Assembly (NCBI GenBank): GCA_963828735.1
Contig: CAWHFW010000002.1
Location: 224,001-288,000 of the forward strand
DNA length: 64,000 nt
Origin: an uncultured Gemmatimonadales bacterium
GTDB lineage: Bacteria; Gemmatimonadota; Gemmatimonadetes; Gemmatimonadales; GWC2-71-9
Reading direction: 5' to 3'
Shown here piece by piece: positions 6,590 to 47,723 of this stretch. Every line of letters begins with the position of its first letter. Positions within the stretch are counted from its first letter, which is position 1. Below the pieces are notes generated by a model. The model did no database searches and had not been told where the DNA came from. It saw nothing but the letters and a program-made list of their open reading frames with translations. A program made the translations under genes and the position numbers.

Positions 6590-8202
6590 GGCGCCATGTC
6601 CAGCATCTCGAGGTTCGCCCGCGCCAGCTCGTGCCCGGGATTGAGCTCGGTGGCGCGGCTCCAGCTCTCGCGGGCCAGCGGCTTGTCGCGGCGCTTGTAG
6701 GCGATGTTGCCGAGCTTGAAGTAGAGGTCGTCGCCCAAATCGGGCGCGAGCTTGGCAGCGCGCTCGTAGGCCTCGCGCGCCTCCTCGTAGCGGCCGTTGC
6801 GGTACAGGATGTCGGCCAGGTTCTTGGAGACCTGGGGCAGCGAGGCATCCTCCGCCAGCGCCGCGCGAAGCGCCTTCTCGGCGCCCTGCGCGTCACCCGT
6901 GAGCTCGAGCAGCACCGCGAGGTTGTTCTGCAGGACCGCGCTCGAGGGGTAGGTCTCGACACCGTCGCGCGCGGCCCGGACCGCGCCCGGGTTGTCGTCG
7001 AGCCCGGCGCTCGCGAGCGTGGAGGCCCAGTACCAAAGGGCGGGCGCCGGCTTTCCGCCGAGCAGCTCGAGGGTGCGCGCGAGCCGTCCCTGCGCGACCT
7101 GATGCTCCCCCCGCTTCAGGGCCACGACGCTCCAACCCAGCATGATCCGCGCGTCGTCGCGCGCGCGGCCGGCGGCATCGCCGAAGGCGGCCTCGGCCTC
7201 ATCGAGGCGGCCTAGGCGCTCGAGCGCGTACCCCAGGTTGTGGAGTGCGGCCGGCTTGGCGCCCGCCGCGCCGGCGGCCTGCCGGAAGGCGGTGGCCGCC
7301 TCCTCCCAACGCCCTTGTCGCACGGCGATGAGGCCGAGGTAGAACGGCGCGCTCGCGTCCGCGGGCCGCAGCTCGGCGACCCGGCGGAACTCCCGGAGCG
7401 CCTCGTCCAGCATCGCGGCTTTGTAGAAGGCGATGCCCAGGTTGCGATGCTCGTCCACGCGACCGTCGTTCACCTTCGGCGCGGCCGGGGCCGAGGTGCC
7501 CACCCGGTGCGCGAACCCCGCCGTGATGAGTCCGAAGAGCGCCTTCCCCACCTCGAATTCCACCAACCCGGACTCGTCGATCACCGCCTGGACGTCGCGC
7601 GTCCCGTCGAGCAGCCGGATCAGGCGTCGCTGCTCGGCCGACAGTTCCGGCGCCGACTCCCCGAGGTGAGCGGGGTCCACCGAGAAGATGAGGTCGAAGG
7701 ACGGGATCTTCTTCTCGATCAGGCTCCATTCGTCGACCCGCCGGGCGCCCTCGAGCAGCAGGAACTCGGGGTTGATGCGCACGAGGAAATCCTCGCGCTC
7801 CGGATTGACGCCGGCCTCGAAGTTGAACGTCCCCGACGTCCAGGTGAACAGGTAGTAGACAGCCTCCTCGATCTGGAGGCGGATGTGGCTCTCCAGGTCC
7901 TCCCGGCTCACGAAGCCGAGCTCGACCAGGATCTCGCCCAGCTTGTGCTCGCGGTCGCCCTCCTGGCGATCGATCGCCTGCTGGAGCTGCTCGGCGCTGA
8001 TGCGCCCGCCTCGCAGGAGGATGTCGCCGAGCCGATCGCGGCGGTTCACGATCGCCGCGTAGACGATGTGGCCTTCCTCGAAGTAGATCGTGCCGAAGTT
8101 GTGTCGGTCGGCGAGGGCCAGGCACCCGGTCCGCCGCCCGAGGAACAGCAGCTGGATCACGTCGGGAAGACTCGCTTCCTTGAGGCTGCCCTTGATCGCC
8201 AT
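6586..8202 (-). CDS. DUF4388 (PATAN-like) + MshEN-like + TPR protein
   Basis: MAIKGSLKEASLPDVIQLL N-terminus; tandem RLGDILL/KLGEILV motifs; LLLEGARRVDEW; C-terminal TPRs. Confidence 0.85.
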   Translation of the reverse strand: MAIKGSLKEASLPDVIQLLFLGRRTGCLALADRHNFGTIYFEEGHIVYAAIVNRRDRLGDILLRGGRISAEQLQQAIDRQEGDREHKLGEILVELGFVSREDLESHIRLQIEEAVYYLFTWTSGTFNFEAGVNPEREDFLVRINPEFLLLEGARRVDEWSLIEKKIPSFDLIFSVDPAHLGESAPELSAEQRRLIRLLDGTRDVQAVIDESGLVEFEVGKALFGLITAGFAHRVGTSAPAAPKVNDGRVDEHRNLGIAFYKAAMLDEALREFRRVAELRPADASAPFYLGLIAVRQGRWEEAATAFRQAAGAAGAKPAALHNLGYALERLGRLDEAEAAFGDAAGRARDDARIMLGWSVVALKRGEHQVAQGRLARTLELLGGKPAPALWYWASTLASAGLDDNPGAVRAARDGVETYPSSAVLQNNLAVLLELTGDAQGAEKALRAALAEDASLPQVSKNLADILYRNGRYEEAREAYERAAKLAPDLGDDLYFKLGNIAYKRRDKPLARESWSRATELNPGHELARANLEMLDMAP

Positions 8203-32546: not shown

Positions 32547-33101
32547 CTATTCCAAGTCCGCGATGAACGGGAGATGACGGTAGTTCTCGGCGTGGTCGAG
32601 TCCGTACCCGACCAGAAAGGCCGGTGGCGCCCGAAACCCGACGAACCGGAGCTCCGGGCGCACCTCCACCGCCAACTGCTTATCGAGGAGGGCACAGATC
32701 GCCAGGCTCCTCGGCCGACGGGCACCGAGCAGCGTCATCAGGCGCTGCAGGGTCTTCCCGGTATCAATAATATCCTCAACCAGCAGAATATGTTTCCCCT
32801 CGAGTCGTGTCTCGGGGTCGTACAGGAGCCGCACCGTGCCGCTCGACACCTTCCCCTTGCCGTAGGAGCTGGCGACCAGGAAATCCACCTGGATCGGACG
32901 CTCGATGGTGCGCACCAGGTCGCTCAGGAAGATGAAGCTCCCTTTGAGCAGTCCGAGCACGAGGAGATCGCCGTCGGGGTAGGCCCCGGTGATCTCGGCG
33001 CCCAGCTCCTGCACCCTGGCCGCGATCGCCGCCTCGTCGTAGACGATGGACTTGACCGGCCGCCCTCCAGTGCGCTTCAGGACCTCAGGTGTGCTCAGCA
33101 T
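32547..33101 (-). CDS. hpt: Hypoxanthine phosphoribosyltransferase
   Basis: LLKGSFIFLSDL, LVEDIIDTGKTL, VGYGLD; tilS-hpt-ftsH synteny. Confidence 0.96.
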   Translation of the reverse strand: MLSTPEVLKRTGGRPVKSIVYDEAAIAARVQELGAEITGAYPDGDLLVLGLLKGSFIFLSDLVRTIERPIQVDFLVASSYGKGKVSSGTVRLLYDPETRLEGKHILLVEDIIDTGKTLQRLMTLLGARRPRSLAICALLDKQLAVEVRPELRFVGFRAPPAFLVGYGLDHAENYRHLPFIADLE

Positions 33102-34407
33102 CGACGCGAACCGCCTCCTTGCCAGGTTCCGGAAGGAGGGCGTCGCTGCGGCTGACGCCCGGAATCCATACCACACCGTCGGGCCCCGCGAGCACCGGCC
33201 ACCGGGCGCGGCGGCTGCGCGGTACGCGCGCGTCTTGAAAGCAGCGAACCAAGAGCCGACGCCCCGACCCGCCCAAGGGGCGGATCCGCTCGCCGACGCT
33301 CCACGCGCGAACCACGAGCGGGGCGGCGGTGAACCAGGCCGTGATGCCGGCTCGTGCCTGTCGAGCGGGAGCCGGCTCGCGCGTCCAACGGAGCCGCCAG
33401 CGACCCCACGCGCCCTCGCCCTGGGCGCCCTCGAGCGACCACCCCGCCTGCGGCGCCGGCTCGTCGACCTGGCTCACCACGAGCCGGTCGAACGCCACCT
33501 CGGCCGCCCACCCCTCCCCCAGCGGCATCATGGCGCCGCTCGAGGCGCCGGCAGCGAGCCGGATGACGCGTCCTGCACACGCGGGTCCGAGGCGGTATCC
33601 GGCCCGTCTCGCCGCGCTCATCAAGACGGTCTCGGCCAGAGGTGAATCATACCCGTTGAGCGCACGGGCAGCAACGGAAAACCCGTCGCGCTCGAGACGA
33701 AAATCGAGGCCCGGAAGCAGGTCGATCACGGCGTTCCACGCCGCCCGGTCGCGGGCCGCGTGGCGGCCCAGGTGGAGCAGCGCGTCATCGACTCGGGGCA
33801 GGTGCGCTCGCAGAGCCGGCAGCACGTCCGCGCGGAGCCAGGAGCGGAAGTGACGCGGGTCAAAGTTGGCGGGGTCGACCCACGCCTCGAGACCCTCAGC
33901 CCGAACGTACGCGAGGATGGCCACGCGGCGGAACGGGAGGAGCGGGCGCACAAGCGTGCCACGGCGCGGCGCCATGCCGGCGAGCCCCGCGGGGCCGGAC
34001 CCCTCGAGCGCCCGCATGAGCACCGTCTCGATCTGATCGTCGGCGTGGTGGGCAGTGAAGATCAGGTGGGCGTCGAGGCGAGCGCGGGCGGCGTCGATCC
34101 ACTCGTAGCGCGCCGCACGCGCGGCCGTCTCCCCGGCGGCCGAGCCGAGCGCGCCCCGGCCCTCTTCGTACGGCAACCCGTATCGGCCCGCGAGCGTCCG
34201 CACGCGGGCCGCGACGTCCGCGCTGTCCGGATGGATTCCGTGGTCGAAGTGGGCGACGAGAAGCTCCTGTCGGTGCACGTCTGCCGTGGCATGCAGGAGG
34301 TGCAGGAGCGCGACGGAGTCGGGCCCGCCCGAGACCGCGACCAGCGCACGGCCCGGCGGTAGGCGGAGGCTCTCCAGATGGCGGCGGAAGTCGTCGGGAA
34401 ACGTCAT
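33085..34407 (-). CDS. tilS: tRNA(Ile)-lysidine synthetase
   Basis: VAVSGGPDS, HFDHG, AHHADDQIET, VRPLL, DPAN. Confidence 0.95.
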   Translation of the reverse strand: MTFPDDFRRHLESLRLPPGRALVAVSGGPDSVALLHLLHATADVHRQELLVAHFDHGIHPDSADVAARVRTLAGRYGLPYEEGRGALGSAAGETAARAARYEWIDAARARLDAHLIFTAHHADDQIETVLMRALEGSGPAGLAGMAPRRGTLVRPLLPFRRVAILAYVRAEGLEAWVDPANFDPRHFRSWLRADVLPALRAHLPRVDDALLHLGRHAARDRAAWNAVIDLLPGLDFRLERDGFSVAARALNGYDSPLAETVLMSAARRAGYRLGPACAGRVIRLAAGASSGAMMPLGEGWAAEVAFDRLVVSQVDEPAPQAGWSLEGAQGEGAWGRWRLRWTREPAPARQARAGITAWFTAAPLVVRAWSVGERIRPLGGSGRRLLVRCFQDARVPRSRRARWPVLAGPDGVVWIPGVSRSDALLPEPGKEAVRVDAEHT

Positions 34408-34429
34408 CGTAGGTGCGCAACGCTCCCGA

Positions 34430-36992
34430 TCAGTAGGCGAAGCCGGCCTGCAGGTAGAACGCCGTGCGGTCGTCCCCGCGTGCGATGGCGATGCTGATCG
34501 TGTTGGGCGGCCCCAGATACGCGAACCAGAAGCCACCGCCGACGCCGGTGTGCCACGTGTCGGACGATTCCCCCTCGAGGTACACCCGGCCCACATCGCC
34601 CAGTGCGAAGAGGCCGAAGTCACCGGGCAGGATCACGAAGTATCGGCCGAGCCGCGCGCGGAGCTCCGCGCTCCCGTACACCGCTGCGTCGCCGGCGTAC
34701 CGCTGTGTGATCACCCCGCGCACGTCGTCCGCTCCCCCGATGAAGGCGGCCTCGAAGAATGGGTATTGGCCCCACACCTTCTTTCCCCCAGCCGCAGGGC
34801 GAGCGTGGGGCCGAACGTCGTATTGGGCGTGAGGTAGGCCGATGCTTCGCCGTGAAGCTCGCCGAATGTCGAGTCCACGTCCCAGATGGCCGGGTAGACG
34901 CTGCCGCTCGCGAGTAGTCGGAATCCGTGTCGCGGAGCGCCGGGGACGTCGCGTGCATCCCATTCGGCCGTGGCAATCGCGCCCGCCCCGCCGAACTTGC
35001 CCACGCCATACGGCTGCGAGATGCCGATGAACCGTGCTGGATCGAGGTCGGTATTCGCGTACTTGAGGGCCGGCCCGACCGAGAAGGTTCCGGTGGCACC
35101 GAGCGGGAACACGACCGACGGCGCGATCAGGTATTGCTTCTGCGGGACCCGGTAGAACTCCTCGTCCTGTTCGATGCGCGTGGTCTCGTTCCCGAATCCG
35201 AAAAACCGCACGACCTCGATACCCGACGCGCGCAACATCACCGAGGTGCGGATCCGGGAGTTCACCCGGTAGAAGTCCCCCTGCAGCTCGGCGCGGAACG
35301 TCTCAGCGCCCGCCGCGTACCCGACGCTCGCGGCCAGTCGCGAGCGCAGCGGCCGTTTGCGGAACCCGAAGTTGTACCGGACTCCGCCGCCGCCGATGAA
35401 GAGGCCGACCTCGGGCCCGATGCTGAACCACGGGCGGAAGCGCCAGAACCCGCCCCAGTCACGCTCGGGGAACGGGGTCGAGTCGCTGGGACTGAAGTCG
35501 GCGAACGGCCGCGGATCGAGGGGCGGAGGATGCCGGCCCGCCGCTTCGTTGGTCCCACGCGCGTCGTAGAACCGGACGCGGCCGCCGCTGGAGGAATCCA
35601 CGACACGATCGTCTCCGCCCCCGCCGATCACGCGGAGCAGTGGCGCTTCCCCACCCTCCCCCGTGATGCGCACCGCGTCGTCACCACCGTGCAGGTACAG
35701 CCGCACCTCCTTGGTCTCGTCGCGGCTGAAGCGTCGATGGAACAGCGGCGATGCGCTTTCATGCGCCGGATACATCGCCACGTCCAGCGTCCGATCTCCC
35801 CGGAGGATCTCGACCCGGTCGGCCTTGTCGCTCGCGTAGACGTCCGGCTCGGCGGCGAGCACCCGGTAGAAGCGCCGCGCCGCCTCGGGCAGGTGATCGC
35901 GACGACTCCTGAGCGCGGCCGCGAGCCAGGTGCCGTTGCGATCGCGGAATTCGGGCGGCAGGTGTGCCACCGCGTCGTCGATCACCGTGTCGGTGATCAG
36001 GCCCTGCAGCTCCGTCGCGGCGGAGTCCCACACGGGCCACTCGAGGCCACTCAGGAGACGGCGGTCGAGCACGCGCGCGTTCCAGGTGAGCCCGACCATG
36101 CTGGGATAGTCGGGCGAGAACGCGACCAGCTGCGGAGCCGAGAGGCGTGCGAGGTCGAGCAGGAGGCCGTCGAATCGGGCGAAGGCCTGATCGCGGTCCC
36201 GCGGGATCGGCGTCCAGGGCACGGTGTCGGCATCCCCGAGTCGCGCCCACCGCCACTGATCCTGGTGGCGATCCCAGTCGCCCAGGAGCAGGTCGACGAG
36301 TCGGGCCGACAGGAAGGCTCGAACATCCGCGCGCTCGTCTTGATGCTTCTCGAGGCGGTCGAACAGCTCGTAGGTGCCGATGATCTTGTCTGCGCCGGCG
36401 AAGCCGGGACCCTTGTCCGTCTGACGCTCTTCGATCGTGCCGAGCAGGCCGCCGAAGACCGGGCGGAACTTGCCCAGCGAGGGATCGTCCGGGAGGAGCA
36501 CGAGCCGGGGGGACGTATGCACCACGTGCGCAGCGTCGAGAATAGGGCTCACCACGAGGGGCGCGGCGGGATGGCCGGCGCTCATCTGGTCCTGGAGGAT
36601 CTCCTGCACGACGGTGTGCTTGAGCTCAACGGGCAGCAGTGGCGATGGATCCTTGTCCAGCGAGCGAAACGCGTACTCGCGGCCGTCGCCACCCTTGAAG
36701 CGCAGCGACTTGGTCTGCTTGCCGCCCCCCGCTCGGTGGGCCGAAGGCCACCGGCGAAGCGACTCAGGTCGAGGATGGGCACGCGGACGGGCGTGGTCCA
36801 CAGGTCCCGATAGTGGCTGCCGAACAGCCAGCGGTGAAATCCGCCGGCGGCGTATTGGGCGCTCGGCGTGACCAGGGTGTCGTGCACGCCGAGGACCGTA
36901 TCCGAGGCGGCCTGCGCCGCGGCGGACCCGGCGTCTACCCCAGCGCCGGTCGCCAGCATGATCCCCAGGCGCCACCCCGTCAACCGGCCCAT
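34430..36992 (-). CDS. Omp85/BamA-like barrel protein with N-terminal atypical-kinase-like domain; two apparent single-G deletions (~36727 and ~34787)
   Basis: Three ORF pieces join into one protein: signal peptide + HYRDLWTTPVRVPILDL, then GGGKQTKSLR...GDWDRHQDQW..., then the barrel ending FYLQAGFAY. Both junctions fall in G homopolymers. Confidence 0.8.
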
Positions 36993-39900
36993 ACGAGCTC
37001 CTCCTCGACACTGTGGTCTGCCGCGATCGCCTGGGCCTGCGCCGTTGCGGGATCGCCGACCGCCAAACTCGTCCGTTGCCGATAGCTGCCGTCCGGTCCA
37101 AGCTCCCAGGCGGCGGGGTCCGCGAGCTCCTGGTCGAGTAGGCGCGCCAGCCTGCTCCGGCACCGGGCGTCGAGCACCGGGGCGGCGACCTCGACCCGAC
37201 GGCGGAGGTTCCGGGCTCGCCAGTCGGCCGAGGCGATGAAGTACTCGTCGGCACCCGCGTTCGCAAAGTGGTAGATGCGCGCGTGCTCCAGGAACCGGCC
37301 GACCAGGCTGCGCACCCGAATCCGCTCCGAGAGCCCCGCCACGCCCGGCTTGAGGGTGCACACGCCGCGCACCACGAGATCGATGTCCACCCCTGCCGAG
37401 GATGCCTCGTAGAGCGCGCGCACGATCTCCGCGTCGTCCAGTCCGTTCAGCTTGGCGCGGATCCGGCCGGGTCGCCCGGCCCGCGCGTGCTCGGCTTCCC
37501 GCGCGATCCGCTCCAGGAGCCCGCGCCGGAGATGCTCCGGCGCAACGAGGAGGCGGCGGAGCTCCGCGCCCGGCGCGCGCGACGTCCCGGTGAGCTGATT
37601 GAACAGGTCTCCGAGATCGTCGGCGATAGCGGGATCGGCGGTCAACAGACCCAGATCGGTATAGAACCGCGCCGTCGCCGCATTGTAGTTCCCGGTGCCG
37701 ATGTGCGCGTAGCGGCGGATCTCTCCCTCCTCCCGGCGCGCGACCAAGGCGACCTTCGCGTGATTCTTGAGTCCGACCACGCCGTACACCACCTGGGCGC
37801 CGGTTCGCTCGAGCTGCCGCACCCACCCGATGTTGCGCGCCTCGTCGTAGCTGGCCTTGAGCTCGATGAACGCCACGACCTCCTTCCCCGCCGCGGCGGC
37901 GCGAAGCAGAGCATTCACGATCGGTGAGTTCTCGCCGGTGCGGTAGAGCGTGAGCTTGACCGACACCACGGCGGGATCGTCCGCGGCCTCGTTGAGCAGT
38001 CGGAGGACGGTCGCCGAGAAGTCGTCGTAGGGATGATGCACCAGGCGGTCGCGCTCGGCGATTACCTGCCAGATCGAGCGGCCCGCCGGCATGGGGTCGC
38101 GACCCGCGAAGGGGGGAAACGCGCCGCCCGGCACGGGCAAGGCCGCGAGGTGCCGTAGGTCTCCCGGCGCCATGACGCCGCCGATCTCGTGGATCACGAG
38201 CTCGCCGGCCGCCGGCCCGCCCTCGAACCGGAGCTCCTGCACCAGCATGTCGCGCAGCACCTGCGAGGTCCCTTGCTCGAGCTCGACGCGCACGGCCGGG
38301 TTCACGGCGCGCTGGTCGAGCTCTTCCTCGATCGCCTGGAGCAAGTCGCCCGCGTCGGCGTCGTCGAGCTCCAGGTCGCCCCGGCGCGTCACACGGAACA
38401 GCACGGCCTCCTCGATGGTGCGATCGGGATACAACAGCGCCAGGTTGGCGAGCACGATGTCTTCGATGGGCACGAGGTCCCGGCCGCCCTCGAGCGCGAC
38501 GAACCGGGGCAATGCGGGCGGAATCCGGACGTACGCGAAATGTCGAGGCCCGGTCGCCTCGCTCTGCAGCGACACCGCGAGCGACAGGGTGAGCGCGGGG
38601 ATCAGGGGAAACGGGTGGCCCGGGCTCATCGTGATCGCGCGCGGCGTCAGCGCCGCGAAGAACTCCCGCCGAAACCGTGTCCGCAGCGCCTCCCGGTCGG
38701 TCTCCCGGAGGCCGTCCCAGCGCCTCAGTCGGTAGCCGTGCTCCGCGAGGCGCGCGAGGCAGTCGGCGATGGTGAACTGCTGGCGGGCGAGGAGCTCCTG
38801 CACGCGGGCCTCGACCGTGTCGCGTTCCGCCGACATGTAGTACTCGTCGAGGTTGGCGCTCACGATCGCGATGTATCGGAGCCGTTCGAGCAAGGGCGTG
38901 CGGTCGTCCTCCGCCAGGGCGAGGACGCGCGAGTTGAACTCGAGAAGGCTTCGGCGCGGTTCGAGCAGGTCCGCCGGTGTCGGTGTCTCCTCGAGCGGCG
39001 CGGCCGCGACGCCCGACTCCGCGCCGTCGGCCCACTCCGGCACCAGCGAGGACCGGGACGCCAGGCCGAACGCCGCCTGCGTGGCTGGATCGCGAAGCGA
39101 CGAGGTCCGGACGGCGCGCGCGAACTCCACGACCGGCATCCAGTCGACCCGGCGTTTATCCCTCGGCTCGAGCCCGCGACGCAGGCGCCGCGCGACCCAC
39201 ACCTCGAGACTCGGCTGCTCGATCGACGCGGTGGCGCGCCCGACGAGCACCAGATCCGCCACCCTCGTGCCGAACCATTCGGCGAGACCATGTCGCACGG
39301 CGTGTTCGCCGGCGCCCGGCGTGACGGGCAACCGAAGGCCCTGGCCATCCGTGAGGACGGCAACGCGGCCGTCATCCAGGACGATGACGGCCACGGCCCG
39401 GCCGAGGTCGAGGTTCCGGACCAGGCTTTCGCGACCCATCTGCCGGAGCAGCTCGCGCGCGCGCGCCATCTTGGTCTGCAGCACGGGGCGGAGTCCCCGG
39501 GACTGCTCCAGCGCGCGGGCCAGCTCCTCGAGGCGGGGGCCGCCCCGCTGCAGGCGGCGAACCTTGAGCTCCCGGAACTCCCGCGAGAGCGCGCCGTTCC
39601 GCACCGTCACCCGGTCGTACAGGAACGCGAACCGGCCGGGGAGCGGCCACGCGCGACCGGCAAGGCGCACGGTGCGCTCGATCTCGAGCTCGAAGCGCGG
39701 CTCGAGGCGGGCGGCGTCCACCAGGCCACGGAGACGTCGCGCGGGCTCGCTCGCCCCGCGGAGAATGGCGGGCAAGTCCACTTCCTCGGTGTTCGCCTCG
39801 AACACCTCGCGCGGGCCCGACACCGGCAGCCCCGGCTCCGCGAAGCCGAGCGTGAGTGTGCGGCGATCGTCCGCGCCGTAGCGGACGCGGCAGGTGATGC

Positions 39901-40060
39901 CCCGCGTGGCGAGGACGTTGTCACTGGTATCCACGTACACGTCGCGGTAGAGTCGGCGCTCGTTGTTTCGCTCACGGAGGCCCGCGGGGAGCGGCTCGGT
40001 CGCGAGCGTGGCCAGTAGCGCGGAGGTGGGAACGTCGCAGCGGAACTCGGCAGGCGGCAT
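36980..40060 (-). CDS. ppk1: Polyphosphate kinase 1 fused to N-terminal CYTH-like and degenerate NUDIX-like domains (~1026 aa)
   Basis: SLLEFNSRVL, HPFP, LVHHPYDDF, KLTLYRT, IELKASYDE, LKNHAK, HIGTGNYN, RFLEHAR, SADWRARNL; N-terminal DVYVDT..L...GITCRVR. Confidence 0.92.
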   Translation of the reverse strand: MPPAEFRCDVPTSALLATLATEPLPAGLRERNNERRLYRDVYVDTSDNVLATRGITCRVRYGADDRRTLTLGFAEPGLPVSGPREVFEANTEEVDLPAILRGASEPARRLRGLVDAARLEPRFELEIERTVRLAGRAWPLPGRFAFLYDRVTVRNGALSREFRELKVRRLQRGGPRLEELARALEQSRGLRPVLQTKMARARELLRQMGRESLVRNLDLGRAVAVIVLDDGRVAVLTDGQGLRLPVTPGAGEHAVRHGLAEWFGTRVADLVLVGRATASIEQPSLEVWVARRLRRGLEPRDKRRVDWMPVVEFARAVRTSSLRDPATQAAFGLASRSSLVPEWADGAESGVAAAPLEETPTPADLLEPRRSLLEFNSRVLALAEDDRTPLLERLRYIAIVSANLDEYYMSAERDTVEARVQELLARQQFTIADCLARLAEHGYRLRRWDGLRETDREALRTRFRREFFAALTPRAITMSPGHPFPLIPALTLSLAVSLQSEATGPRHFAYVRIPPALPRFVALEGGRDLVPIEDIVLANLALLYPDRTIEEAVLFRVTRRGDLELDDADAGDLLQAIEEELDQRAVNPAVRVELEQGTSQVLRDMLVQELRFEGGPAAGELVIHEIGGVMAPGDLRHLAALPVPGGAFPPFAGRDPMPAGRSIWQVIAERDRLVHHPYDDFSATVLRLLNEAADDPAVVSVKLTLYRTGENSPIVNALLRAAAAGKEVVAFIELKASYDEARNIGWVRQLERTGAQVVYGVVGLKNHAKVALVARREEGEIRRYAHIGTGNYNAATARFYTDLGLLTADPAIADDLGDLFNQLTGTSRAPGAELRRLLVAPEHLRRGLLERIAREAEHARAGRPGRIRAKLNGLDDAEIVRALYEASSAGVDIDLVVRGVCTLKPGVAGLSERIRVRSLVGRFLEHARIYHFANAGADEYFIASADWRARNLRRRVEVAAPVLDARCRSRLARLLDQELADPAAWELGPDGSYRQRTSLAVGDPATAQAQAIAADHSVEEELVWAG

Positions 40061-40065
40061 ACCGC

Positions 40066-42504
40066 TCACTCTCCGATTGCGGCCCGCCGGGCCTTGAGGC
40101 GTTCCTCCGCGAGCGCGCGCGCTCGGGTGAACCCGGCCTGAAACTCCGGACGCGTCCACACTCGGTCGAACAAGCCGGACCGGAGCTGCCACTGATGCAG
40201 CATCGGGGAGTGCGCCAGCGCCCGCTCCAGCCAGGTCAGGGATTGGGCGGCATCGCCGCGCCAGGCGTAGTAGGCCGCGAGGTCAGCATACTGGTGCAGG
40301 AACGCGTAGCGCTCCGCATCGAGCTCGCCTCCAAGCGAATCGGCCAGGGCCGCGGCCTCCACGTTCCGTCCCAGTTGATGGAGGCACATCGCCCGGACGG
40401 CGACCCAGGGGCCAGGATCGTGGGCGGCGCACTCGGCTGCCTTACCCGAGAGAAGCTGTGCGTAGCCCTGAAGGACGGCCGAGACCGGATCCACGCCACC
40501 GCCGGGGAGCGCGGGCCGCACTTCGCGGAGCGCCACGTCGTAGCGGCGTGCGCCGATCGCGAGCGCAACCAGCGAGTGGCGCACCCCCGGCGCGAGAGGA
40601 TCCAGCGCGAGGCCGCGCCGGGCCTCCCTCAGCGCGGCATCGAGCTTCCCCTCGCGGAACAGGGCCCACGCGTAGGTCATGGCGATGTCGGCCGAGTTGG
40701 GCTTGAGGTGGCGCGCTCGCTCCGCGTCCGCCCGCACCGAATCCTCGGGAAGGAACGCGATCGAACGGGCGTCGGCCCTCGCGAGATAGCCCTCGGCGGC
40801 CATCGTATCCCGGGCCACCGCCCGCCCCGCCAGGCGGAGCGCCTCGGCGAGCTCGCCGTAGGGATCGGCCTCGCCGCGGTAGCCGTAGATGACGGCGTAG
40901 GTGTGCGCGGAGGCGAGCCCCGCGAGTGCCTGCGGGTAGTCGGCGTCCTGCGCGAGCGCTTCTTCGAAGGCACTCACGGCGAGTCGGAGGCCCTCCGGGG
41001 TCCGCCGCTGGAGCCAGTACACGCCCTTGAGATACGACTCGTACGCCGCGATCTGCGCGGTGCGCCGGGGCGCGGCCGGCATCGGCGCTCCGCCGCTCGA
41101 GGCGACCAGCGCGCCTGCGACCTGTCGGGCGATGGCGTCCTGCAGCTGGAGCAGCTGGCCCTCGCTCAGGCGGTAGGTCTCCTGCCAGAGCACGCGGTCG
41201 CGCCGCGCATCGAAGAGCTGCACGCGGGCCTCGATGCGCTCGCCCGTCCGCTCGAGCGAGCCGTCGAGGACATGGCGGACGTGGAGCGTGTCGGCCACCT
41301 GGCGCACCGTGAGCCGGTGGCCCTTGAGCGCGACGACCGAGGTCGGCGAGATCACCCGGAGGCCCTCCACCTGCGCCAGGCGGTCGATGATCTCGCGGCT
41401 CAGGCCGTCCCCGAGGTATTCGTCCTCGAGATTGTCGCTCCGGGTAGCGAGCGGAAGCACGGCAATCGTGGCGAGATCGTCGGGCGTGTCCGAAAGCGTG
41501 GCCCCGCCGCGTAAGCCGCGGAAGCGGGCGACGCCCAGCGCGACCAGGACGATCACCGCAGCCGCGACGAGGACGCGGCTCCAGATCGAGCCCGAGCCCG
41601 TCCGCTCGTTGCCCGGCAGCCGCCAGTCCGCCACTTCCGCGGGCGTCGGCGTGCTGAGCCGCGCGGGCTCCCCCATCTCGGCGCGAAGATCGGCCGCCAT
41701 GTCGCCGGCCGTCTGGTAGCGATCCTCCGGACGTTTGGCCAGCGCTCGATCGACGATCGCGAGGACGGCCGGCGTCACCTCGGGCCGCAGCTCGGCCACG
41801 GGCGTCGGCTTTCCCGCGGCCTGCTTGACGAGCACTTCGCGCAGGTTGGCGCCCCCGAAGGCCATCGTGCCTGTGAGCATCTCGTACAGTACGCATCCCG
41901 CGCCGTATACGTCGCTGCGGGGGTCGCCGCCTCCCCCGCCCTGCGCCTGCTCCGGACTCATGTAGGCGGCGGTCCCGATCGGCAGCCCGCGCGCGGTGAG
42001 GGAGTTGCCGCTGGCGAGCCCGATGGCGCGCGCGATGCCGAAGTCGGCCACCACCGCGTGGCCATTGGACAACAGGATGTTCTCCGGCTTGACGTCCCGG
42101 TGAACGATGCCCTGGCGATGGGCGTAGTCGAGCGCTTCGGTCACCTCGCGGCCGAGCAGGAGCGCCTCGTTCACCGGCAAGCGGCCGCTCAGGAGCCTCT
42201 CGCGGAGACTCTCACCGTCTACGAACGGCATCACGGAGTAGAGCAGGCCGGCGGCGTCACCCGAGTCGATCAGCGGAAGGATGTTCGGATGCTGGAGCTG
42301 GGCAGTGATGCGGATCTCGCGGAGGAACCGTTCGCCCGCGACGGAAGTCATGACGGTGGGGCTGAGCACCTTGATCGCGACTTCGCGGCCCAGCTTGCGG
42401 TCCCGTGCGAGGAAGACCGTCGCCATTCCGCCGCGCCCCGCCTCGCGCTCCACGACGTAGCGGTCACGAAGCGCGTCCTTGAGCCGCGACAGCAATTCGC
42501 TCAT
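40066..42504 (-). CDS. Ser/Thr protein kinase with TM helix, TolB-N-like domain and TPRs
   Basis: GRGGMATV, VAIKV, HRDVKPEN, DFG, YMSPE; IAVLPL...YLGDGLSREII. Confidence 0.93.
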   Translation of the reverse strand: MSELLSRLKDALRDRYVVEREAGRGGMATVFLARDRKLGREVAIKVLSPTVMTSVAGERFLREIRITAQLQHPNILPLIDSGDAAGLLYSVMPFVDGESLRERLLSGRLPVNEALLLGREVTEALDYAHRQGIVHRDVKPENILLSNGHAVVADFGIARAIGLASGNSLTARGLPIGTAAYMSPEQAQGGGGGDPRSDVYGAGCVLYEMLTGTMAFGGANLREVLVKQAAGKPTPVAELRPEVTPAVLAIVDRALAKRPEDRYQTAGDMAADLRAEMGEPARLSTPTPAEVADWRLPGNERTGSGSIWSRVLVAAAVIVLVALGVARFRGLRGGATLSDTPDDLATIAVLPLATRSDNLEDEYLGDGLSREIIDRLAQVEGLRVISPTSVVALKGHRLTVRQVADTLHVRHVLDGSLERTGERIEARVQLFDARRDRVLWQETYRLSEGQLLQLQDAIARQVAGALVASSGGAPMPAAPRRTAQIAAYESYLKGVYWLQRRTPEGLRLAVSAFEEALAQDADYPQALAGLASAHTYAVIYGYRGEADPYGELAEALRLAGRAVARDTMAAEGYLARADARSIAFLPEDSVRADAERARHLKPNSADIAMTYAWALFREGKLDAALREARRGLALDPLAPGVRHSLVALAIGARRYDVALREVRPALPGGGVDPVSAVLQGYAQLLSGKAAECAAHDPGPWVAVRAMCLHQLGRNVEAAALADSLGGELDAERYAFLHQYADLAAYYAWRGDAAQSLTWLERALAHSPMLHQWQLRSGLFDRVWTRPEFQAGFTRARALAEERLKARRAAIGE

Positions 42505-43574
42505 CGGACCCCGTCGCCCAGCTCCACGCCGGTGACGTGCGGGGCCGCCTCGCTCCGCAGGCTCTGCACCAGGCTCTCCGCCGGCACGCTCTTCCGGAGA
42601 CGCACGCGGTACTGCAGCCGTTCGGCGGCCCCGCCCTCACCCGGCAAGGCCCGCACGAACTCCCAGCGCTTGGCGGACTGGTCCAGGACGGATTCCACGG
42701 CCCGTCGCGCGGCGTCCGCGGCGCCGTGGATCTGAAGCTCGAGGGGGCGGAGCTCGGGCGCCGGTTTCTTGACGACGACGACGTCGTCCTGCGAGGAACG
42801 CCGACGGCGTCGGGCCGCCCGGTCCGAGAGCGCGTCGAGCTGGTCCGGCGTGAGCGACTTGAGGATCTGATCGTCCACGAGCCGGACGAACGCGCTGGTG
42901 CGGTTCGAGAGCGCCAGGGCTCGCTGCAAACGCTTCTGCGCGACCGGTCGCCCCAGGTCGGCCGGCGCGCGACCGAAGTCGGTGTACCAGAGGATCAGGA
43001 TGATGACGTTGAACGTGATCGAGAGCGCTGCCGCGAGCGGCACCGACTGGATGCCCGCCGCCAGGCCGACGCCGGTGCCGAGGAAGATGTACACCGCGTC
43101 CTTCGTGTCCCGCAGGGTATTCCTGAAGCTCACCGCGGCGACGATGCCGCCCAGACTGAAGGCCAGGGCCAGGCTGTTCTTGACCATGAAGACGACGCCG
43201 GCCACGACGATCGGCAGGATGATGAGCGTCTGCACGACCGACTGACGGAACCCCTTCCGCCTCCTGGTCATTATGTAGATCCAGGTGACCGGGAGCATGA
43301 GCGCGAAGGCCGCGGTCATGCCGAACACCTCCGAGAGGGGAAGTCCGGCTTTGGTCTGAAAGAGGGGGGCCTGCGAGTTCAGGAGATCGGGAAGACCGGT
43401 GGGCGTGTCCACCACACTCGGCTGAAGGCCGCCCGAAAACAGCTCCTCCGCGCCCGGCACGAACTGGATGAGGAGCCCGGTGGCCGCGAACAACAGGATG
43501 TAGTAGGCGACGACCCGGACCATGGGGTTGTCCACCAGTCGGGTGAAGCCACTCGATGTGCGTTCAGTTGGCAT
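42501..43574 (-). CDS. DUF4956 membrane protein
   Basis: QTLIILPIVVAGVV.MVKNSLALAFSLGGIVAAVSFRNTLRDTKDAVYIF..GVGLAAG. Confidence 0.85.
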   Translation of the reverse strand: MPTERTSSGFTRLVDNPMVRVVAYYILLFAATGLLIQFVPGAEELFSGGLQPSVVDTPTGLPDLLNSQAPLFQTKAGLPLSEVFGMTAAFALMLPVTWIYIMTRRRKGFRQSVVQTLIILPIVVAGVVFMVKNSLALAFSLGGIVAAVSFRNTLRDTKDAVYIFLGTGVGLAAGIQSVPLAAALSITFNVIILILWYTDFGRAPADLGRPVAQKRLQRALALSNRTSAFVRLVDDQILKSLTPDQLDALSDRAARRRRRSSQDDVVVVKKPAPELRPLELQIHGAADAARRAVESVLDQSAKRWEFVRALPGEGGAAERLQYRVRLRKSVPAESLVQSLRSEAAPHVTGVELGDGVR

Positions 43575-43619
43575 CGGCCGCCCTCCAATCGAGCGACGCG
43601 GGACCCAGAGGCGTTCGCA

Positions 43620-43647
43620 TTGACGGGCCTCGTCGATATGTTAGCGT
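43620..43647 (+). promoter_or_regulatory. Putative sigma70 promoter for the plus-strand kinase
   Basis: TTGACG-16 nt-TAGCGT with an extended -10 TG, in the divergent intergenic region. Confidence 0.4.
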
Positions 43648-43702
43648 TCGACCACTAAATTGCGACGGTTCGGTAGTTTGCGCCACAGCCGGGAGCAAAT
43701 CG

Positions 43703-45316
43703 ATGATCCAGGCCGAGCTGCTGGAAACCCAACTGGCAAGCACGCCGACTGCCCCCTCCGGGGCCATGGTGGACGAGCTGCCGGACGACCTCCTCCGCGA
43801 GGCGACGCAGAGGCTCGGTATCCTGGCGCTCGTCTGGGCAGGCCTGTTCGCGATCGGGATCCTGATGAACGACCTGGTCGCGCCCCTCATGAATATCCCG
43901 ATGCGGGATCTCATTCCCTGGGGCCGGCCCGCGGACATCGTCGGAGTGCTGAGCATCAGCCTCTCCCTCTGGTTGTGGCGCTACACCCGGAAGCTGACCT
44001 GCCGGCCCCGGCTGGCGCTCGACCTCGCGCTGGGGTACGAGGTCCTGCTCGCCTTCGGGATCGGCGTCGTCAACCAGTGGGAGCCGCACCGTCTCCTCGC
44101 CGGCCGTCTGTCGTGGATCTGCGTGGTGGTCCTTCTCTTCCCCATGATCGTCCCCAACACGCCACGGAAGACGCTCATCGCCTCACTGATCGCGGCCTCG
44201 ATGGATCCCCTCGGGCTGCTGGTTGCGCACCTCCGGGGGCTCGAGACGCCGTCCTTCGCGCTGATCCTCTGGAACTATCTCCCCAACTACGTGTGCGCGC
44301 TCATCGCGGTCATCCCGTCCAAGATCATGGTGCGACTCGGCCGACAGGTCCAGCGGGCGCGCGAGCTCGGAAGCTACCGACTGACGGAGCTCATCGGGCG
44401 GGGCGGCATGGGCGAGGTGTGGCGCGCGACGCACCGGATGCTCGCCCGGCCCGCCGCGATCAAGCTCATCAAGCCCGAGATCCTGGGCGCGTCCACTGAC
44501 AACGCAACGGCCTCCATCATCCGACGGTTCCAGCGGGAGGCCGAGGCGGCGTCCGAGCTCCAGTCACCGCACACGATCCGGCTCTACGACTTCGGCCAGA
44601 CCCGGGCCGGGACGTTCTACTTCGCGATGGAACTGCTCGACGGGCTGGATCTGGAGACGCTGATCCGCCGCTATGGCCCCGTGCCGCCCGAGCGGGTGGT
44701 CGATCTGCTCCGCCAGACATGCCACTCGCTCGGCGAGGCTCACGACCGCGGGCTGGTCCACCGCGACGTCAAGCCGGCCAACATCTATGCCTGCCGCCTC
44801 GGTCGAGAATACGACTTCGTCAAGGTGCTGGATTTCGGCCTGGTGAAGTACGACCAGGACGAATCCATCCTCGACACCATCAATGCCGCCGAGGTGACGA
44901 CCGGCACCCCAGCCTACATGGCGCCCGAGATGGCGAGCGGGGCCGACCCGGTGGACCGGCGCGCCGACATCTACGCGCTCGGGTGCGTGGGTTACTGGCT
45001 GCTGACCGGCCAGATGGTGTTCGAGGCGGAGAGCCCGCTCAAGATGCTCATCCAGCACATCCAGGCGATCCCGGTTCCTCCCAGCATCCGGACGGGTCGC
45101 CCCGTGCCGCTGGACCTGGAGCGGGTGATCATGCGATGCCTCGAGAAGGATCCGACGCGCCGCCCGCAAACGGCCGACGATCTGGTGGCGGAGCTGGATC
45201 GCGTCGTCCTGGAGCAGCCGTGGGACCAGACTCAGGCGCGGGCGTGGTGGCAGAAGCACCTGGAGCCGACGACGGGACGGGCGCCAGCCCCGCAGCTGGC
45301 AGTCGCCGTCGGGTGA
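43703..45316 (+). CDS. Membrane Ser/Thr protein kinase (multi-TM N-terminus)
   Basis: GRGGMGEV, AIKLI, HRDVKPAN, DFG, GTPAYMAPE; about six hydrophobic helices. Confidence 0.93.
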   Translation: MIQAELLETQLASTPTAPSGAMVDELPDDLLREATQRLGILALVWAGLFAIGILMNDLVAPLMNIPMRDLIPWGRPADIVGVLSISLSLWLWRYTRKLTCRPRLALDLALGYEVLLAFGIGVVNQWEPHRLLAGRLSWICVVVLLFPMIVPNTPRKTLIASLIAASMDPLGLLVAHLRGLETPSFALILWNYLPNYVCALIAVIPSKIMVRLGRQVQRARELGSYRLTELIGRGGMGEVWRATHRMLARPAAIKLIKPEILGASTDNATASIIRRFQREAEAASELQSPHTIRLYDFGQTRAGTFYFAMELLDGLDLETLIRRYGPVPPERVVDLLRQTCHSLGEAHDRGLVHRDVKPANIYACRLGREYDFVKVLDFGLVKYDQDESILDTINAAEVTTGTPAYMAPEMASGADPVDRRADIYALGCVGYWLLTGQMVFEAESPLKMLIQHIQAIPVPPSIRTGRPVPLDLERVIMRCLEKDPTRRPQTADDLVAELDRVVLEQPWDQTQARAWWQKHLEPTTGRAPAPQLAVAVG

Positions 45317-46182
45317 GACGCTGCGTCCTGCGGCGCGCGCTTCCCACGGCGCTCGTGGTCACCGCCGTCGCGGGGACGGTCGCGACCGCGGGAGCGCCCG
45401 AGAGCCTGCTCGCGAGGTATGACCTCACGGCGCCGCCGGCAGGCCGCTGGAAGCTGCCGAAGGAGCTCAACGAGATCAGCGGCCTCGCGATGGAGGGGAG
45501 TCGACTGTTTGCGCACGGCGACGAGCAGGCCATCGTCTATGAGCTCGACCCCGCCTCGCATACCGTGGTCCGCCGGTTCTCGCTCGGCCAGCCCGCGGTC
45601 CGCGGCGACTTCGAGGCGATCGCGGTGGTGCACGACCGCGTGTTCCTCACCACCAGTGACGGCGACCTGTACGCCGCGTCGATCGGCGCCGACGGCGCGG
45701 CGGTCCCGTACGAGCGTTTCGTGACGGGGATCGGACGAAGCTGCGAGGTGGAAGGGCTGGCGTACGACCCGAAGGGACGCGAGTTCCTGTTCGGCTGCAA
45801 GACGCCGCGCGTGCGTGCGCTCCACGGGCGGCTCGCGGTGATCGGCTGGTCCCCGGAGCGACGCGAGGCGCCCGTGCTGCGCCTCGGCATTCCGATCGCC
45901 ACGGTCGAGGACCTCGAGGGGGAAGCGGTGGCACCGTCGGAGCTGCTGCGGGACCCATCGAGCGGGCACCTGCTGTTGCTGGCGGCGCGGGCGCGCGTGA
46001 TCGTCGAGGTGACGCCAGAGGGCGGAGTGGTCGCGGTCGCGAAGCTCCGTCACTCGCTGCACCGCCAGGCCGAGGGTCTCGCGATCGGCGCGGACGGCTC
46101 GCTGCTCGTCGCCGATGAGGCCGCCGGTGAGCATCCGATGCTCACGCGCTACGCACCGCGTCCGGCGTCCCGCGCCCCGTGA
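45313..46182 (+). CDS. SdiA-regulated/YjiK-like secreted beta-propeller protein
   Basis: GTGA overlap; signal peptide; ELNEISGLA, HGDE, GDFEAIA, EVEGLAYD, QAEGLA. Confidence 0.78.
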   Translation: MRRCVLRRALPTALVVTAVAGTVATAGAPESLLARYDLTAPPAGRWKLPKELNEISGLAMEGSRLFAHGDEQAIVYELDPASHTVVRRFSLGQPAVRGDFEAIAVVHDRVFLTTSDGDLYAASIGADGAAVPYERFVTGIGRSCEVEGLAYDPKGREFLFGCKTPRVRALHGRLAVIGWSPERREAPVLRLGIPIATVEDLEGEAVAPSELLRDPSSGHLLLLAARARVIVEVTPEGGVVAVAKLRHSLHRQAEGLAIGADGSLLVADEAAGEHPMLTRYAPRPASRAP

Positions 46183-46189
46183 GCTCCTG

Positions 46190-47431
46190 CTAGGGGCGAA
46201 CCGGTCGCACCACGGCTGACCGCGCGCTGTCCGGGGGCGCGCACCCGTTCGCCCAGGTGTTCGCCGGCGGCAGCACCTGGGCGTAGATCTCGCGCGGCTC
46301 CCCCGTTGCCGACACCGTTACCACGCCCAGCCGCAGCCCACCGTCCCGCAGCAGATCCGCCCGCATGAAGCCGCCCGTCGAGAGCGCCAGCCGGGTCTCG
46401 GGGATCTCCTCCACGTAGCTCTGGTGTCCCAAAATCCCTACGCCACTGACCGCGAGCAACGGCGGCCGTCCGCGATCGAGGATCTGGAGGGTGTGCTCGT
46501 GGCCTGCTGCATAGAGCGCCGGCGGCCGGCATGCGAACGCGCTGTCCAGTGCCGCGCGTAGCGCCCGGTAGGCGGCGGAGTTCACGTCTTCCGAGCTGAT
46601 GCCGGCACCGCGGAGGGCAGGATAGATCGTGCCGATGATCGGCAGGGGGATGTAGAGCGCCGGGTGCAGGGCACGGAGGGGGAAGATGTAGTCGCCGGGC
46701 GAGAAGTATCCGCCGTGCGGACCTGCCGTGAGGATCGGATGGTGGCCGGCGACGATCACCTGCCGGCCGGATGATTCCGCGAGAATCCGTGCGATCGCCC
46801 GCCGGACCTCGCGGTCTGTCTTGGCGGGACATGCGGAGCCTTCCCCGGGTTTCTCGTGCGGGAAGAGCCACCACTCCGTGTCGAGGAGCACGAGTCGCAG
46901 GCCGCTCGAGACGTCCACGATCTCCGGACCCGGGCAGCCGTCCGCCGGAAGCATGCGGGCTCGCCCGCCGCCCTCCCGGGCAATAAGGCTGCCCTGACGG
47001 CGGATGCGAGCGAGCCCGTCGGATCCCGATTTCTGCCAGTCGTGATTGCCGGGGATGAAGACGGTCGGCGCGTCGTGTGCGAGGGCGAGCTGCGCCTCGA
47101 GCCGTCGAAGCGCCTCCGGATACGAGGGATCGGTGCTGTCCGGCACCCCGTAGTCGTACACATTGTCGCCGAGGAACAGGATGATGGTCGAATCCGGCCG
47201 GCCGACGAGTGAGCGCTTGACCCCCTGCAGCACCGGCTCTCCCGAAGCTTTCGGAGCCCCGGCGTCGCCGATGAGGATGACGCTCGCCACCACGTCCCCA
47301 CGCGCGGGCGGGGGGGCCGTGGACGCGGGAATGACGTGCGCGGAACAGGCCGCGAGCGCGATCGTCGGCAGGGTGCGCGCGGCGACGCGCCAGGAGAAAC
47401 GAGCGAAAGGGCTGGGGATGGAGTTCTTCAG
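46190..47431 (-). CDS. Calcineurin-like metallophosphoesterase lipoprotein; probable CTG start
   Basis: GDAG, LGDNVY, PGNHDW, GHHP, AGHEH; in-frame lipobox IALAA-C upstream of the track's GTG start (47293). Confidence 0.88.
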   Translation of the reverse strand: MKNSIPSPFARFSWRVAARTLPTIALAACSAHVIPASTAPPPARGDVVASVILIGDAGAPKASGEPVLQGVKRSLVGRPDSTIILFLGDNVYDYGVPDSTDPSYPEALRRLEAQLALAHDAPTVFIPGNHDWQKSGSDGLARIRRQGSLIAREGGGRARMLPADGCPGPEIVDVSSGLRLVLLDTEWWLFPHEKPGEGSACPAKTDREVRRAIARILAESSGRQVIVAGHHPILTAGPHGGYFSPGDYIFPLRALHPALYIPLPIIGTIYPALRGAGISSEDVNSAAYRALRAALDSAFACRPPALYAAGHEHTLQILDRGRPPLLAVSGVGILGHQSYVEEIPETRLALSTGGFMRADLLRDGGLRLGVVTVSATGEPREIYAQVLPPANTWANGCAPPDSARSAVVRPVRP

Positions 47432-47723
47432 GCCGGGCGGCCCAGGTGGAGGGCCCGTAGGGTGCGCCAGTACATCGCAATCATCGCAGTGGTGCTATCG
47501 CGTTGTTATCACGTGGCTTGGCATTGGTGTTATAAAGGTGTTTAGAGGTCAAGGCGGCCTCCCTAGAGCGATCGATGACAATCCACTTGAGGCATTGGTG
47601 GCAGCATGCGACGCGCAGGAGACTCCCCCAGCCTGGGGGCGGCGCGAAATTCAAGGTGGCTTCGCTCTGCCCCAGGGCCCTGGACTTTGACCTGCCGAGC
47701 CCCTGCCCCAGGATGACTGCTAG

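Follow-up and report, generated by a model that had tools for sequence, protein, structure and literature searches.

A gene cluster linked to polyphosphate in a Gemmatimonadales bacterium joins DUF4956 and a CYTH-extended PPK1 with a predicted kinase-like outer-membrane barrel protein

How bacteria bring polyphosphate out of the cytoplasm and how a kinase could work where ATP is lacking are open questions. A gene cluster at positions 34430-47431 of a 64,000-nucleotide window (the whole stretch of DNA analyzed here, G000:C2:224001-288000) from an uncultured Gemmatimonadales bacterium offers candidates for both: the membrane protein DUF4956, a partner which in some genomes is fused to the polyphosphate kinase PPK1, and an exported domain of predicted kinase fold carried on an outer-membrane barrel, in a protein that we call KinOmp. 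The cluster further encodes two Ser/Thr kinases, a beta-propeller protein and a metallophosphoesterase lipoprotein (Table 1), and its PPK1 bears an N-terminal CYTH-type extension (CYTH-PPK1). All the genes listed in the initial annotation of the window, which had read them as a trans-envelope route for polyphosphate or a phosphorylated polymer, were found in this interval. The source genome (4.78 Mb in seven contigs, about 70% G+C, 97.5% complete) has metagenome-assembled genomes (MAGs) of Gemmatimonadales as its close relatives, and the organism occurs in soil and rhizosphere samples.

DUF4956 and polyphosphate polymerases across Gemmatimonadota

Our survey covered 151 Gemmatimonadota genomes with a completeness of 90% or more. 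Gene coordinates were paired by hand, so that small errors may remain. DUF4956 was present in 65 genomes, the polyphosphate polymerase VTC in 10, KinOmp in 50 and PPK1 in at least 124. A short-form DUF4956 gene was found no more than 3.2 kb from each of the ten VTC genes, and directly adjacent to eight of them, in agreement with the initial annotation, which had named VTC as a common neighbor of DUF4956. A DUF4956 gene was found within 10 kb of PPK1 in at least 26 of the 65 genomes, and within 10 kb of either polymerase in at least 35. Furthermore, the membrane part of DUF4956 and a complete PPK1 were encoded in a single open reading frame (ORF) of 941-1245 amino acids, stop to stop, in five genomes; Pfam confirmed the fusion in all three cases tested. 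Taken together, the results showed that DUF4956 is linked to polyphosphate polymerases by both adjacency and fusion. In four of the five fusion genomes (loci L117, where the fusion has 941 amino acids, L118, L119 and L121) there is also a canonical PPK1 gene, which converges on the fusion gene from the opposite strand at a distance of about 2 kb.

The same survey revealed a parallel cassette. A CotH match was found beside the VTC-DUF4956 pair in four of the five VTC-bearing genomes tested, and in two genomes (G149 and G161) the gene order was VTC, DUF4956, a TPR protein (in G161 only), a protein of about 1060-1090 amino acids that joins CotH to a right-handed beta-helix, and a metallophosphoesterase. 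Its parts correspond to those of the window: both have a polymerase and DUF4956, a phosphoesterase, and a CotH-fold domain (in the window by prediction) joined to a beta-solenoid. VTC stands in place of PPK1, and the CotH-beta-helix protein in place of KinOmp. The CotH-beta-helix protein had no Omp85 match in Pfam. In the genomes that contain both DUF4956 and KinOmp, the two genes lay within 10 kb of each other in 22 of 34, and within 2.5 kb in 17. Exported CotH-fold proteins and a phosphoesterase are therefore linked to the DUF4956-polymerase pair by recurrent adjacency, in two non-homologous versions. That two unrelated polymerases, PPK1 and VTC, keep the same partners points to their product, polyphosphate, as what the system needs.

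The polymerase of the window scores as a PPK1: TIGR03705 scored 644 bits against a cut-off of 465.85, NF003921 scored 726.7 against 701, and the N, middle, C1 and C2 domains were all present. Its N-terminal extension of about 400 residues comprises the CYTH region and a second conserved domain without a recognized fold (about residues 215-345). The CYTH family (PF01928) reached 21.3 bits for the full-length protein and 23.3 bits for the N-terminal 400 residues, at a cut-off of 23.2, and was matched in all five CYTH-PPK1 orthologs (best E 3e-5). A profile of the CYTH region compared with solved chains found no significant relative.

The DUF4956 match of the window protein spans residues 93-199 and covers only positions 6-110 of the 169-position profile. 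Judged by eye from the sequence, the protein has a polytopic N-terminal part followed by a cytoplasmic C-terminal tail of about 150 amino acids; the DUF4956 form paired with VTC is short and differs from this long one. Twenty-two orthologs were aligned. A DUF4956 profile showed no significant relation to solved chains, VTC subunits included, and NCBIfam holds no family for DUF4956 or for the propeller. A predicted complex between DUF4956 and the N-terminal CYTH region scored 0.00, which bears neither way on binding. A search for VTC (PF09359) found no match in the source genome, and the same search found VTC in the ten genomes counted above. The source genome has two DUF4956 genes; the second, also of the long form (G000:C2:690923-691216; L115 8507-9538, minus strand), lies beside a gene for a TMEM175-type potassium channel.

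KinOmp: predicted fold, family and gene neighborhoods

The initial annotation had described the last gene of the operon as a kinase-like Omp85 protein, and structure models agree with this description. The model of a full-length ortholog (predicted local distance difference test, pLDDT, 78) begins with a signal peptide, followed by an alpha/beta domain (about residues 30-372), a short beta-solenoid (375-480) and a barrel (507-844). The barrel, with about 16 predicted strands, matches BamA, TamA and Sam50 (Foldseek, E 6.5e-11). Omp85 (PF01103) was matched in 10 of the 16 intact orthologs (best E 3.7e-8) and ShlB weakly in four, while NCBIfam gave an Omp85 match below threshold only. The window copy, which could be scored only in pieces, had no Omp85 match in Pfam. 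None of the Pfam matches of the 16 orthologs, up to E of 1, was to a POTRA family, and the N-terminal part of 460 residues matched no Pfam family.

Because a fold search with the full-length model returned barrels only, the N-terminal domain was modeled alone (pLDDT 87; predicted template-modeling score 0.89). In VIA-align this model matched phosphatidylinositol 4-kinase (PI4K) II alpha (4pla; Z 14.4, 271 residues aligned) and CotH (5jda; Z 14.4, 249 residues aligned, 14% identity), followed by CtkA (13.6), HipA (11.6), PI4K-III beta (11.2), actin-fragmin kinase (10.9), Fam20C (10.6), MavQ (10.4) and WaaP (8.3). Foldseek returned CtkA (E 1.8e-5), CotH (3.6e-5) and Fam20C (6e-5), and the ESM Atlas gave weak leads only, with scores of 0.80-0.82 (CotH, HipA_2, HipA_C and Fam20C). 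At the sequence level, the profile of the domain found nothing significant among solved chains (CtkA, 3akj, at E 0.83), and the CotH family PF08757 was matched neither in the window pieces nor in the 16 orthologs; the likeness is in fold only.

The motif GDWDRHxDQ ... RDRDQAF is invariant in all 16 sequences, including D191, D193, R194, H195, Q198, D218 and D220 (A5 numbering). In the model these residues sit after a long helix and on the strands that follow it, where the catalytic loop and the DFG motif of kinases lie. From their positions we infer that D193 may be the catalytic Asp, Q198 the metal-binding Gln, and D218 and D220 may supply the DFG-type Asp. The N-terminal domain of KinOmp is thus predicted to have an atypical kinase fold of the CotH/PI4K-II type.

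The KinOmp family is large and uniform. At E of 1e-5 or better it had at least 5904 proteins among the 8000 candidates scored, with 3676 cluster representatives at 50% identity and at least 594 genomic loci, and so far these proteins are named in NCBI only as 'BamA/TamA family' or hypothetical. In one of them (P0228) a metallophosphoesterase domain is fused in front of KinOmp, which bears out the metallophosphoesterase-Omp85 fusions mentioned in the initial annotation.

To learn which genes accompany KinOmp, we searched within 10 kb of the gene at 79 loci from five or more phyla, including Gemmatimonadota, Ignavibacteria, Chlorobia and Bacteroidota, with hidden Markov models built from the window orthologs. 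Since many contigs are short, the counts are lower bounds. The propeller was the most frequent companion (26 loci; 24 within 1.5 kb, in all four groups just named), followed by a Ser/Thr kinase (23 loci), and then by the phosphoesterase, DUF4956 and PPK1 (20 loci each). The phosphoesterase lay within 1.5 kb in 17 loci, in most of them directly upstream on the same strand; the DUF4956 loci were all from Gemmatimonadota; and a CYTH-type extension was detected in 11. At least one of propeller, phosphoesterase, DUF4956 and PPK1 was present at 49 of the 79 loci. As an internal control, the flanking tilS and hpt genes recurred in two loci each, those of the closest relatives only. The families of the initial annotation do therefore co-occur, but a Ser/Thr kinase at only 23 of 79 loci weighs on its suggestion that such kinases control the system.

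The arrangement of the genes is variable. At least six placements of PPK1 were seen: it can lie upstream or downstream of KinOmp, follow DUF4956, or be convergent with or divergent from KinOmp, and a PPK1 in which no CYTH part was detected lies immediately behind KinOmp on the same strand. PPK1 lies within 4 kb of 19 of 78 KinOmp copies, and this pattern needs at least 14 state changes on a FastTree tree of KinOmp. Within the genus, PPK1 and the TPR kinase are in the operon only in the closest relatives; in other members KinOmp is accompanied by the propeller and the phosphoesterase, and in some cases by DUF4956.

Some further features of these loci were observed. Two KinOmp matches were found in 8 of the 79 loci (L040, L049, L051, L053, L058, L095, L101 and L104). 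In most of these loci the copies are distinct, and a propeller or phosphoesterase gene often separates them; the overlapping matches of L104 look like one frame-broken gene, and in L049 the second copy, on the opposite strand, is cut by the contig end. A membrane protein with HD phosphohydrolase and PycTM (Pycsar effector) domains is encoded within about 6 kb of KinOmp in 12 loci, mostly of Ignavibacteria, for example just downstream of KinOmp in L066 (12591-13850, minus strand).

Gene layout, frame breaks and accompanying genes

Family calls were made with Pfam and NCBIfam (Table 1). DUF4956, the TPR-bearing Ser/Thr kinase, CYTH-PPK1 and KinOmp form, in this order, a string of four genes on the minus strand with ends that overlap or nearly touch. 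A 4-nucleotide overlap joins the end of the DUF4956 gene to the start of the kinase gene, a 5-nucleotide spacer separates the kinase stop from the PPK1 ATG at 40060, and CYTH-PPK1 and KinOmp overlap by 13 nucleotides, so that the genes are coupled as first annotated. The membrane kinase and the propeller genes diverge from this string, and the metallophosphoesterase gene converges on the propeller. The three envelope proteins (KinOmp, propeller and metallophosphoesterase) have a signal peptide or a lipobox.

Table 1. Genes of the cluster and its downstream flank, in window coordinates
Feature	Coordinates	Strand	Evidence or position
Housekeeping tilS (PP-loop and TilS_C) and hpt	32547-34400	-	directly downstream of the cluster
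KinOmp (predicted kinase-like domain and Omp85 barrel)	34430-36992	-	orthologs, fold models
CYTH-PPK1, 1026 aa	36980-40060	-	four PPK1 Pfam domains; TIGR03705, NF003921
Ser/Thr kinase with TPR	40066-42504	-	Pkinase E 6e-45; weak TPR matches
DUF4956 inner-membrane protein, long form, 357 aa	42501-43574	-	PF16316 39.5 bits, cut-off 30.6
Divergent membrane Ser/Thr kinase	43556-45316	+	Pkinase E 6.8e-41, residues 274-539
SdiA-regulated / phytase-like beta-propeller	45313-46182	+	PF06977 39.7 bits, cut-off 21
Metallophosphoesterase lipoprotein	46190-47431	-	PF00149 31.6 bits, cut-off 21.5

In the window the KinOmp gene is spread over three frames, with breaks at 34784/34785 and 36724/36725. Both breaks are one-base gaps relative to the orthologs and lie beside runs of five G, and 16 relatives have an intact ORF of about 850-880 amino acids. 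We aligned Logan metagenome contigs from four studies to positions 34400-47600. An extra C behind 34784 was found in runs X2 and X12, and an extra C behind 36724 in runs X6 and X12, each lengthening the homopolymer from five to six; the X1 contig, which ends 4 bases beyond the first site, gives no information there. Since independent contigs carry the extra base at each site, the breaks are homopolymer assembly errors, and the KinOmp gene is intact in the natural population. A pseudogene or a programmed frameshift was rejected, as these contigs restore the frame. In the same alignment, the summed contig depth of each of the four runs was very high in bins 41897-42337 and 44543-44983. These bins fall in the two Ser/Thr kinase domains, where conserved kinase motifs probably attract contigs from other organisms.

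A second PPK1 of the source genome, without the CYTH extension (G000:C2 about 433800-436000; L116 about 5840-8000), is likewise scattered over many frames. Where metagenome contigs cover it, and the cover is patchy, it has five indels relative to them (L116 5819, 5896, 6001, 6874 and 6980), and its scattered frames are at least in part assembly error. The source assembly is noisy in general, with single-base homopolymer indels, and other apparent frameshifts are to be read accordingly.

Both Ser/Thr kinases are of the Hanks type (PF00069; 154.1 and 140.8 bits, cut-off 31.7). The TPR kinase has a cytoplasmic N-terminal kinase domain, one membrane helix and an extracytoplasmic part of about 480 amino acids with TPR repeats, and orthologs hold the equivalent position in loci L013, L018, L023, L028 and L033-L035. 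The divergent kinase, by eye, has a polytopic N-terminal half ahead of its C-terminal kinase domain, its true start is probably downstream of 43556, and it too has orthologs in the equivalent place. It had been annotated as a membrane kinase with a propeller. Both parts are present, but the propeller is not part of the kinase: it is a separate gene whose product has its own signal peptide, and which is translationally coupled to the kinase through the overlap of its GTG at 45313 with the kinase TGA (GTGA). The phytase-like match of the propeller is weak (23.2, cut-off 27.6).

For the metallophosphoesterase lipoprotein, the family and a lipobox (LAAC) are confirmed, but a canonical start codon ahead of the lipobox is not: the first such start, at 47293, is downstream of it, and no in-frame ATG, GTG or TTG was found upstream (47293-47431, minus strand). 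Most of the orthologs viewed start canonically, and one metagenome contig agrees with the window in this region without gaps. It is possible that the gene starts at a CTG or ATC, or that a base is in error.

Possible roles of the cluster and comparison with known systems

The link of the cluster to polyphosphate is well supported by the adjacencies and fusions described above. For its function we offer, tentatively and with somewhat less than even confidence, the proposal that the cluster supplies polyphosphate to the periplasm, where the KinOmp domain, the phosphoesterase and the propeller use or process it. DUF4956 would hold PPK1 at the inner membrane and pass polyphosphate outward, by analogy with VTC in yeast, which couples polyphosphate synthesis to membrane translocation (PMC9911596; 10.1101/2023.01.27.525886). 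The periplasm-facing kinase-like domain of KinOmp could then take polyphosphate, rather than ATP, as the phosphoryl donor for some envelope substrate, the phosphoesterase and the propeller might trim polyphosphate or reverse the modification, and the two Ser/Thr kinases, one of them with an extracytoplasmic TPR part, may tune synthesis. Export of polyphosphate across the envelope is what we infer here. In a bolder form, which we consider doubtful, DUF4956, coupled to PPK1 or VTC, would be the long-sought bacterial polyphosphate translocase that feeds the ATP-free periplasm, and a family of outer-membrane CotH-fold kinases would use polyphosphate to modify envelope or surface molecules.

Several observations weigh against periplasmic supply. 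The families do co-occur and shuffle, but they make up two separable modules, DUF4956-PPK1 and KinOmp-propeller-phosphoesterase, which also occur apart, and not one obligate machine. KinOmp is without DUF4956 in 16 of its 50 genomes in the Gemmatimonadota survey; in at least six genomes a long-ORF (CYTH-type) PPK1 comes after DUF4956 and KinOmp has no match, with the CYTH part confirmed in the two of these that were examined; and 59 of the 79 KinOmp loci, many on short contigs, lack PPK1 within 10 kb. Related genomes are not independent, and the counts overstate the support. The source genome itself has a KinOmp paralog of 42% identity (G000:C5:715208-717163; L017 2664-5252, minus strand) with none of the module genes nearby; it is followed on the same strand by genes for an Ion_trans_2 channel and a Na/Ca exchanger. 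The second DUF4956 gene of that genome also has neighbors unrelated to polyphosphate, among them genes for a TIR-domain (CAP12/Pycsar-type) and a metallo-beta-lactamase-fold protein.

The proteins raise doubts of their own. CYTH domains and triphosphate tunnel metalloenzymes carry the motif ExExK on their N-terminal strand; in five close orthologs of CYTH-PPK1 the first strand reads A-E-F-R-C-D-V, which does not match it, and only R7 and V10 of this strand are invariant across all 14 sequences. The CYTH assignment stands only at the Pfam threshold. As for KinOmp, its N-terminal domain belongs by sequence to no kinase family in Pfam, and in the alignment and the model its strand-3 position is Arg instead of the usual Lys; the domain could be a pseudokinase or bind something else.

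The main rival, which we regard as possible though on the unlikely side, is that polyphosphate stays in the cytoplasm, that DUF4956, as an MgtC-like membrane protein with an ACT-like tail, does no more than anchor or regulate PPK1 at the membrane, and that the outer module is a separate phosphate-acquisition or stress system, located nearby because of a shared phosphate signal. The separability of the modules favors it. So do the weak phytase-like match of the propeller, the hydrolase family of the phosphoesterase, and the recurrence of other phosphatases near KinOmp (PAP2 and histidine phosphatase in five loci each, besides the HD protein in its 12). In the part of the literature that bears on it, the authors of a preprint on a Gram-positive cassette place its DUF4956-type protein, which has an ACT domain, in the MgtC family and suggest that the polyphosphate may stay cytoplasmic (10.1101/2024.04.20.589940). 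However, co-regulation alone leaves unexplained why VTC and PPK1 each pair with DUF4956, an exported CotH-fold protein and a metallophosphoesterase, and why DUF4956 lies so close to KinOmp in 17 genomes; the parallel cassettes argue against it. Nor would a scavenging system have an evident need for a conserved kinase active-site motif.

Two other explanations are improbable. The first, a stricter form of the reading in the initial annotation, is a complete export route, with the Omp85 barrel as the outer-membrane pore by which the cell would release polyphosphate or a phosphorylated polymer, or display it on the outside. Some Omp85 members of the FhaC/ShlB type are secretion pores, KinOmp orthologs have the weak ShlB matches noted above, and polyphosphate secretion, described as protective against amoebae and macrophages, is known in some bacteria (PMC10653871); the organism occurs in soil and rhizosphere samples. 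However, the best matches of the barrel are to BamA and TamA, which are of the insertase type, and neither a plug or pore feature nor a gene for polymer synthesis was identified. In addition, the CotH-beta-helix protein of the VTC cassette lacks an Omp85 match in Pfam, so that the system does not always include a barrel pore. The second, to which we give as little weight, takes KinOmp for a kinase or remodeler of outer-membrane lipid or lipopolysaccharide that has no relation to polyphosphate and is paired with the phosphoesterase as the phosphatase; the adjacency to PPK1 would then reflect phosphate economy alone. The matches to both PI4Ks, MavQ and WaaP among the fold relatives, the lipid-phosphatase-type PAP2 neighbors and the general role of TamA-type Omp85 proteins in envelope biogenesis agree with it, but such a kinase would still require a periplasmic phosphoryl donor, and KinOmp is repeatedly found near DUF4956 and polyphosphate polymerases, in many different arrangements. 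A chance or purely historical juxtaposition is very improbable: high-GC MAGs have many kinases and related genomes share gene order by descent, but tilS and hpt are kept in 2 of 79 loci as against 20-26 for the module genes, PPK1 takes at least six arrangements, and the fusion proteins already disfavor it.

Polyphosphate accumulation underlies biological phosphorus removal, and the type species of the Gemmatimonadota came from a reactor for that process. If DUF4956 is a translocase and the exported kinases use polyphosphate, polyphosphate would be a new currency of energy and phosphate for chemistry outside the cytoplasm in the FCB group and the Gemmatimonadota.

In our literature search, with supplements outside its scope, no paper was found that describes a kinase-Omp85 protein, a fusion of DUF4956 with PPK1 or an operon with CYTH-PPK1. 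In the same search Omp85 and CotH were not found together, the DUF4956 papers treated neither PPK1 nor Omp85, and nothing relevant was found on polyphosphate with Omp85 and metallophosphoesterase. The cluster is a variant of a gene set known only as a neighborhood. A close known counterpart is the group of cotH, VTC-like polyphosphate polymerase and DUF4956 genes described beside Gram-positive pel operons (10.1101/768473; 10.1101/2024.04.20.589940), to which the parallel VTC cassette of the Gemmatimonadota also corresponds. Like that group, which also includes DUF4832, it combines an exported CotH-fold, kinase-like protein (in the window by prediction) with a polyphosphate polymerase and a DUF4956 membrane protein. 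Unlike it, the window has no pel locus, its polymerase is a PPK1 with a CYTH extension instead of VTC, its kinase-like domain is not Pfam CotH and is fused to an Omp85 barrel, its DUF4956 is of the long form (about 350 amino acids with a partial Pfam match), and a propeller and two Ser/Thr kinases are added.

The eukaryotic VTC complex (Vtc4/Vtc3/Vtc1) likewise ties a polymerase to a membrane part, here by adjacency and, in five genomes, by the DUF4956-PPK1 fusion, and the window PPK1 has, at threshold, a tunnel-type domain of the CYTH clan. The catalyst here, however, is PPK1, no VTC domain was found in the source genome, and DUF4956 showed no sequence relation to VTC subunits.

The C-terminal barrel places KinOmp with the Omp85 superfamily (BamA, TamA, FhaC), among which enzyme-barrel fusions of the PlpD type also belong. 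Unlike BamA and TamA, it has a predicted kinase-like domain and a short beta-solenoid before the barrel, and no POTRA was found. In predicted fold the N-terminal domain resembles CotH, CtkA, Fam20C (4kqa), PI4K-II alpha and HipA (Z 10.6-14.4), and its D-x-D-R-H-x-x-Q loop and R-D-R-D motif fall, in the model, at the catalytic-loop and metal-binding Asp positions of atypical kinases. It differs from these kinases by a Gln for the usual Asn, by the Arg on strand 3, and by lacking significant sequence similarity to them. Finally, the window PPK1 has all four domains of canonical bacterial PPK1 and passes the NCBIfam cut-offs, but, unlike the canonical enzyme, it carries an N-terminal extension of about 400 residues and sits inside an envelope operon.

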